Positions 9,517 to 9,897 of a DNA stretch of 64,000 nucleotides are shown in pieces (the stretch's first letter is position 1; every line of letters starts with the position of its first letter). The stretch lies in assembly GCF_048403405.1 (NCBI RefSeq), contig NZ_CP183129.1; one strand, given 5' to 3'. The position numbers and the translations under genes were made by a program. The DNA is from Escherichia coli. Lineage in GTDB: Bacteria > Pseudomonadota > Gammaproteobacteria > Enterobacterales > Enterobacteriaceae. The notes below the pieces were generated by a model. It saw only the letters and a list, made by a program, of their open reading frames with translations. It did no database searches and was not told where the DNA came from.

Positions 9517-9897
9517 AATGAATCCTTTTTCGATTTATGAGAATAAATACTCATTTAAGGGTGAAAACATTTTGCCTGCAAATGATTATCAGGAAATATA
9601 ACATTATCGAAGTATTCAAATTAACAACTATTAAATAATATTAAACATTTTTAACGTAAACATTAAGAATATTCATCTTGTTATCTGTCTGTATTTTAAC
9701 CAGAATTAAATCAGTATTAGATGCCGTATGAATATCTCGAAATGTTGCTGTGTATCACATACAAATCATCACCGCAGGACCATAGTATTTACATAAGATT
9801 TGTCCCCCCGGAGGTAGTCATCGCAGCAATCGAGTAAATTAGCTTCACCACGGTATATTGTTTCCGTAGAATACCCATAATTATAAGAGAGGTTGTT

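Follow-up and report, generated by a model that had tools for sequence, protein, structure and literature searches.

We found that the spacer between the divergent genes yffB and ypfM, the most AT-rich block in the 64-kb stretch of Escherichia coli DNA analyzed (the window), is very probably a control region built of two halves: a drifting yffB side coated by H-NS and IHF, and a conserved ypfM promoter module, with no RNA gene in either. Base composition, gene arrangement, published occupancy by H-NS, IHF and sigma-70, the published ypfM start sites (P1 and 9768) and the pattern of conservation all entered into this description. The block is an H-NS-bound promoter spacer that is real, ordinary and already known. 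The sole mildly new item is a conserved promoter-like unit upstream of ypfM.

Position, base composition and coding content

The open reading frame of yffB occupies positions 9160-9516 on the minus strand and that of ypfM positions 9898-9957 on the plus strand, and the block that the sequence-only reading had marked off by composition coincides exactly with the 381 bp between them (9517-9897; Table 1). The neighborhood reads dapE-yffB / ypfM / acrD, with acrD running from 13169 down to 10056 and converging on ypfM; dapE is an essential gene. The block serves the yffB-dapE-ypfN operon on one side and the divergently transcribed 19-codon ypfM on the other as a common control region, and this part of the chromosome is core, vertically inherited E. 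coli DNA. Its counterpart in K-12 MG1655 (NC_000913.3, 2590867-2591246) is 380 bp long, 1 nt shorter than here, and contains no annotated feature. A poly-C tract at 9804-9809, in the variable sequence that separates conserved block C from block D (see below), is polymorphic in length, with six C in this sequence and five in strain WP2-S18-ESBL-08 (locus L002). Five C in K-12, where the run itself was not read, would be consistent with the 1-nt-shorter spacer. Beyond ypfM, a terminator-like hairpin on the minus strand (10005-9981, 3' of acrD) faces the plus-strand ypfM hairpin at 10016-10051. Given these convergent hairpins (9981-10051), the acrD and ypfM transcripts should overlap in antisense orientation within the ypfM 3' UTR.

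The GC content of the spacer was 31.2%, compared to 53.3% for the window, a difference of 22 points, and no other 381-bp block in the 64 kb was lower, which confirmed the initial impression of an unusually AT-rich region. Only 0.09% of 381-bp windows reached so low a value, and every one of them overlapped the yffB/ypfM locus. The bias was strongest in 9517-9720 (23.5% GC vs 39.9% in 9721-9898), and the A/T run quoted in the sequence-only reading, TTAAATAATATTAAACATTTTTAACG, lies at 9631-9656. The only other stretch in the window with less than 30% GC over 200 bp was 24664-24956 (minimum 28%), which lies between maeB and eutS, upstream of the eut operon.

The spacer had also been said to contain no supportable ORF, and this holds. 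Mechanical ORFs of 22-38 aa were present, but all of these candidates failed cross-genus conservation, with the start lost or stops gained in the compared relatives (E. albertii, divergent E. coli, Citrobacter and Enterobacter). A partial exception was a 22-aa ORF at 9728-9796 on the plus strand (MNISKCCCVSHTNHHRRTIVFT), which only Escherichia and one Citrobacter keep unbroken. This ORF runs across conserved blocks A-C and begins upstream of every mapped start site, and it is probably a by-product of conservation at the DNA level.

Table 1. Features of the yffB/ypfM spacer and its immediate surroundings (positions in the window)
Feature	Position	Strand	Remarks
Whole divergent yffB/ypfM spacer	9517-9897		381 bp, 31% GC
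yffB Shine-Dalgarno sequence, AAGGAT	9522-9527	-	AAGGATTCA invariant across genera
Dyad ATGAGAATAAATACTCAT in predicted yffB leader	9537-9554		Resembles an ARG box or Fur box
Predicted yffB transcription start	9587	-	By homology to Salmonella only; leader ~71 nt
Extended -10 element TGTTATATT of putative yffB promoter	9595-9603	-	Cross-genus conservation
AT-rich core upstream of putative yffB promoter	9605-9731		23% GC; within published H-NS and IHF regions
Computed yffB promoter TTCATA-16-TTTAAT (Shimada 2014)	9705-9732	-	-35 at 9727-9732, -10 at 9705-9710
Blocks A (ATATCTCGAAATGTTGC; consensus TATTTCAAAATATTGC) and B (ATCACATACAAATC; consensus GTCACATAAAATTT)	9732-9767	+	TTGC-N6-TCACA invariant
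Minor start site (K-12 2589017)	9768	+	Kim 2012; 129-nt ypfM leader
Block C, CATAGT, putative -10 hexamer	9781-9786	+	Predicted start A9793
Block D, TCATCGCAGCAATCGAGTAAAT (consensus AATCACAGCAATCGGTTAAAT)	9818-9839	+	Center ~51 bp upstream of P1 start 9879
ypfM promoter P1	9844-9879	+	-35 TTCACC 9844-9849, -10 TAGAAT 9867-9872, start A9879
ypfM coding sequence, 19 codons, 19 aa (MIERELGNWKDFIEVMLRK)	9898-9957	+	Context
ypfM intrinsic terminator, end of STnc250-like transcript	10016-10051	+	Context

Occupancy by H-NS, IHF and sigma-70

The proposal that this is a divergent promoter region bound by H-NS is supported by published data obtained both in vitro and in vivo. In the genomic SELEX study of Shimada 2014 (PMC3946193), the spacer, located at 55.80 min, bound the RpoD (sigma-70) holoenzyme and was marked 'HNS', i.e., it contains an H-NS SELEX site; computed promoters were listed for ypfM (TTCACC-17-TAGAAT) and yffB (TTCATA-16-TTTAAT). 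Additional evidence came from the ChIP data of Myers 2013 (PMC3688515), whose U00096.2 coordinates were converted to the window by way of ypfM (2588829-2588888) and the 1-nt difference in the poly-C tract. An aerobic H-NS ChIP-chip region in Table S3 of that study (2588306-2590027, window 8758-10480) spans 1721 bp and belongs to its 'extended' class (>1 kb). Two anaerobic H-NS regions, 2588247-2588977 (window 9809-10539) and 2589168-2589958 (window 8827-9617), leave 9617-9808 uncalled, and an IHF region covers 2589033-2589880 (window 8905-9752). H-NS and IHF regions thus lie over the spacer, at a ChIP-chip resolution of several hundred bp, which does not resolve the H-NS contact to the AT core alone. 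Within the spacer, the high-affinity H-NS nucleation motif TCGATAAATT had two weak matches, each with two mismatches, at 9601 and 9731.

In the same data set, sigma-70 ChIP-seq peaks were located at ypfM promoter P1 (2588887/2588903), with occupancies of 321.56 and 816.5 in two conditions (the row is labeled 'Anaerobic'), and inside yffB (2589585); no sigma-70 peak was listed at the yffB promoter (Myers 2013, PMC3688515). At ypfM, the mapped start at 9879, the ChIP-seq peak and SELEX binding are all present in the published record.

The region had further been suggested to be curved. In a wedge model, the mean curvature of the block fell within the top 5% of the window, with one local peak of 27 degrees near 9577; predicted curvature was thus modest, and this part of the suggestion is weakly supported.

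The spacer resembles other H-NS-coated AT-rich divergent spacers of E. coli, such as the type-A 'HNS' spacers of Shimada 2014 and the 'extended H-NS binding regions' of Myers 2013. It shares with them the gene-pair layout, a strong AT bias, H-NS binding in vitro and in vivo, binding of the sigma-70 holoenzyme and co-occupancy by IHF. One difference is that the H-NS signal does not keep ypfM P1 from being active and clearly occupied by sigma-70.

The yffB side of the spacer

To examine conservation, we fetched 80 Enterobacterales yffB loci and, separately, one Salmonella contig, and aligned 33 spacers. A conservation profile across Enterobacteriaceae had been suggested as a check, and across these ~80 loci it split the block into a neutral core on the yffB side and a conserved module on the ypfM side. 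A ypfM-like ORF divergent from yffB was found in 66 of 82 scanned loci. Spacer length was nearly constant (386-391 bp) in most Citrobacter, Enterobacter, Leclercia and Lelliottia loci; compared to Citrobacter, the yffB leader of Enterobacter was ~22 nt shorter and its AT core ~20 nt longer.

Only three items were conserved on the yffB side: the Shine-Dalgarno sequence, a loose dyad in the predicted leader, and the stretch 9593-9603, which reads GAAATATAACA on the plus strand and TGTTATATT on the yffB strand. The latter was conserved in Escherichia, Citrobacter, Salmonella, Enterobacter, Leclercia and Lelliottia. In Salmonella, where a yffB reporter uses a start at -97 (Frohlich 2016), TGTTATATT ends 8 nt upstream of this published start site, and the position of the element predicts an E. 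coli yffB start at ~9587. No yffB start site was listed for E. coli in Kim 2012 (PMC3415461). The promoter computed for yffB by Shimada 2014 is a different site, and its -10 hexamer was not conserved in Citrobacter.

The leader dyad resembles a small hairpin or a protein-binding site; RNAalifold made no call for it. Other genera retained a TGA...TCA dyad with variable spacing, and the sequence shifted while the dyad stayed, being TGAGTATTTATTCTCA in E. coli, TGACTAATTAGTCA in C. amalonaticus and GAGCAATTGCTC in Leclercia. A predicted Salmonella Fur site overlaps the homologous dyad (Troxell 2011). However, a fixed dimeric site is hard to reconcile with a spacing that differs from genus to genus, and the ARG-box and Fur-box readings were rejected.

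The AT core between these elements and the ypfM-side module evolved like synonymous sites. Its identity to E. albertii was 0.79, compared to 0.77 at yffB third codon positions, and its identity to Citrobacter was ~0.55 (0.50-0.57), compared to 0.55; in genera more distant than Citrobacter, the core could not be aligned. From this divergence, the core appears to drift at a neutral rate and to have no sequence-specific function. Only in Escherichia is the AT bias of the core so extreme (23-31% GC, vs 30-39% in Citrobacter and Enterobacter), with 33-44% in Kluyvera and values up to 54% among the other aligned genera. The economical reading is that the core acts through its composition, by binding H-NS and IHF and by promoter-upstream effects.

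The yffB-proximal 215 bp (9517-9731, 23-27% GC) probably holds a weak extended -10 promoter, TGTTATATT, preceded by an AT-rich stretch whose composition attracts H-NS (and IHF) in vivo, and this coating would keep yffB promoter activity low or mask its regulation; silencing by H-NS is here a presumed consequence of occupancy. A separate promoter inside yffB appears to supply the essential dapE. In Kim 2012 (PMC3415461), a dapE start lies inside yffB, at window position 9426 on the minus strand, 270 nt upstream of dapE, and a strong sigma-70 ChIP-seq peak of Myers 2013 was observed near the yffB 3' end (~9200). Together, the start and the peak suggest that dapE has its own promoter or promoters, which appear to be independent of the H-NS-covered yffB promoter.

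A conserved module on the ypfM side

The ypfM-side half (9732-9897, 166 bp, 40% GC) was conserved above the neutral level, with an identity of 0.90 to E. albertii and ~0.65 to Citrobacter. It consists of block A, block B, block C, a variable stretch, block D, and P1 with the leader, in this order. The distance from block A to the ypfM ATG was 167-175 nt in all genera and the predicted +1 position lay 100-118 nt from the ATG, whereas the whole spacer varied from 349 to 864 bp. This fixed distance despite the variation in spacer length suggests that the module is tied to ypfM and not to yffB.

The pattern TTGC-N6-TCACA-N20/21-CATAKT occurred once in the window (0.01 expected) and was present in 59 of 85 loci, including 55 of the 80 from Enterobacterales, K-12 and both Salmonella contigs. 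The N6 gap was invariant. Block C was either CATAGT or CATATT, and A9793 was near-invariant. In Klebsiella grimontii (locus L031, 2275-2300), a tandem duplication of AAATGTTGCT was observed in block A.

Transcripts of ypfM and the question of a small RNA

Supplementary file 2 of Kim 2012 (PMC3415461) places the ypfM start at A9879, 7 nt past TAGAAT and with a 19-nt leader. Both this site and the second ypfM start, A9768, were low in reads. The supplements of Ettwiller 2016 and Adams 2021 contained no match for the locus. The ypfM transcript of Salmonella is listed as STnc250; this small mRNA of ~220 nt is stable and 4-fold enriched with Hfq. YpfM protein has been detected by mass spectrometry. 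We found a sub-threshold match to the corresponding Rfam family (RF01409) at 9937-10056 on the plus strand (36.9 bits vs a gathering score of 42, E = 3e-5), which covers the 3' part of ypfM and the terminator and is located outside 9517-9897. Its position over the 3' part of the gene indicates that the Hfq-binding RNA in the catalogue is none other than the ypfM mRNA. In Lelliottia nimipressuralis (locus L032), the ypfM stop codon was lost and the peptide was extended to at least 30 aa (MIERELGNWKDFIEDMLRNDLQEELQEHLI).

The sequence-only reading had suggested that the AT-rich block might encode an unannotated small RNA, and a trans-acting RNA separate from the yffB and ypfM mRNAs could in principle account for a spacer that is long by E. 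coli standards, for a plus-strand start (9768) located ~110 nt upstream of ypfM P1, and for the history of the adjoining ypfM transcript, which was first catalogued as the sRNA candidate STnc250 with its Hfq enrichment in Salmonella. We consider this very unlikely. Within 9517-9897, there was no Rfam match even at E <= 10 and no terminator-like site on either strand. RNAalifold found zero consensus pairs for both the ypfM-side module and the yffB leader, and single-sequence folding was no better than that of shuffled sequences (z-scores of +0.4 to +0.7). Short conserved blocks alternated with stretches that varied in sequence but not in length, a pattern typical of protein-DNA sites, and the AT core evolved neutrally. 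Mapping of start sites had been proposed as a check; the only plus-strand starts mapped in the spacer (9879 and 9768; Kim 2012) are assigned to ypfM. STnc250 is the sole small transcript documented at this locus. Its promoter and leader fall within 9517-9897, but it is the protein-coding ypfM mRNA and not a non-coding RNA from the AT-rich block. A separate RNA gene in the spacer is not supported.

A candidate upstream promoter of ypfM

The conserved fixed-length module (9732-9897) holds P1 (start 9879) and, ~100 bp upstream, a second promoter-like unit, TTGC-N6-TCACA-N21-CATAGT-N6-A, which could be an activator-dependent upstream promoter of ypfM. Tentatively, and with somewhat less than even confidence, we read TTGC-N6-TCACA as an activator site, CATAGT as the -10 element and ~9793 as the start of an mRNA with a leader of ~105 nt. 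The geometry is similar to that of class II CRP/FNR-type promoters, in which the activator site is centered at -41.5; here, an invariant TCACA half-site lies 21 nt upstream of a conserved -10-like hexamer, and the center of the 16-bp site would be at -41.5 relative to predicted start A9793. Unlike in a CRP site, however, the left half-site is TTGC, only 7 of 10 CRP core positions match, and the invariant C is off both the CRP and the FNR consensus. The E. coli site TTGCTGTGTATCAC matches the FNR consensus TTGAT-N4-ATCAA at 8 of 10 positions, but in Tables S5-S7 of Myers 2013 (PMC3688515) neither an FNR ChIP peak nor a predicted site is listed under these coordinates or gene names, and FNR was rejected. 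No CRP binding study was found among the papers that mention ypfM or yffB in their main text.

Alternative sigma factors and a marbox were compared with the module by eye, using their consensus sequences, and none was convincing. The GG of the -24 element of sigma-54 is missing; a TAAAATTT-like -35 of sigma-28 is present, but the -10 has no CGA; sigma-32 is a good fit in Leclercia (CCCCATAT) but a poor one in E. coli; and there is no conserved -35 for sigma-E. A marbox agrees at 10-11 of 15 positions, and its second element is shifted out of register.

The same conserved bases might instead form an operator or enhancer to which a repressor or nucleoid protein binds. It would serve either P1 or the weak start at 9768, and in the latter case blocks A and B would act as the -35 and -10 of that start. 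The only start mapped nearby is 9768, directly downstream of block B, and none was mapped at the predicted 9793 in Kim 2012, in which 9768 is the nearest. The most conserved bases, AAATATTGC, fall at the place of the promoter spacer, which points to a protein-binding site. A MarA ChIP-seq peak of Salmonella SL1344 also falls in the spacer, and its center was mapped here to block B. The peak center lies 56 bp from the motif assigned by the authors; since their table contains many peak-to-site distances this large, the MarA evidence is weak. An operator or enhancer is slightly less likely than the upstream promoter, and three observations speak against it. Block C, as CATA[GT]T, retained A2 and T6 of the -10 hexamer in all 56 module-bearing loci and was followed exactly 7 nt on by a pyrimidine-A dinucleotide in 49 of them. 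The gap between TCACA and the hexamer was 21 nt in 49 loci and 20 nt in 7, which is what a site at -41.5 needs. Finally, in Salmonella, an RNA that begins at the predicted start and ends at the terminator would measure 228 nt, close to the reported ~220-nt band, compared to ~148 nt from P1. The ~220-nt Hfq-associated STnc250 of Salmonella may be the ypfM transcript made from the upstream promoter.

Distribution of the spacer and its origin

At >=95% identity, all but one of 5426 complete E. coli genomes (5425) contained the spacer, and it was no more variable than the yffB coding sequence (>=99% identity in 2521 records, vs 594 for yffB). This near-universal presence with no extra variability indicates core DNA and not an island. 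The spacer query was interrupted in ~43 of the 5426 records, compared to 2 for the yffB coding query. The IS1 copy that we examined (strain WP2-S18-ESBL-08, L002 1610-2378) lies in yffB codons 3-5, with a target duplication at 9501-9509 (9 bp, CGTAAAGTG); HUE1 and ZH142 apparently carry the same insertion. An IS hot-spot in the spacer was rejected, the examined element being in the 5' coding end of yffB and outside the spacer.

A GC content this far below the window mean, binding by H-NS and the presence of IS1 copies at the locus in some strains might be taken as marks of horizontally acquired (xenogeneic) DNA, or of a mobile-element scar, silenced by H-NS. We regard this as extremely improbable. 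Besides the distribution in E. coli and the position of the examined IS1, a syntenic yffB/ypfM pair with a homologous spacer was found in Salmonella, Citrobacter, Enterobacter, Klebsiella, Kluyvera and others. The patchy distribution expected of a xenogeneic H-NS target was not observed, and neither absence from basal Escherichia lineages nor flanking repeats or att sites were seen. In being core, vertically inherited DNA, the spacer is unlike horizontally acquired H-NS islands.

Significance

AT-rich, H-NS-coated divergent promoter spacers are well charted in E. coli, and the yffB/ypfM spacer is already included in published SELEX and ChIP tables. What the comparative anatomy adds on the yffB side is a testable yffB promoter. 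On the ypfM side, if the upstream promoter is real, the 19-aa YpfM would be under tight and conserved transcriptional control, and the long-leader RNA could itself be regulatory. YpfM is a conserved protein, and finding the factor that recognizes TTGC-N6-TCACA could provide a first hint of when it is produced and for what purpose.
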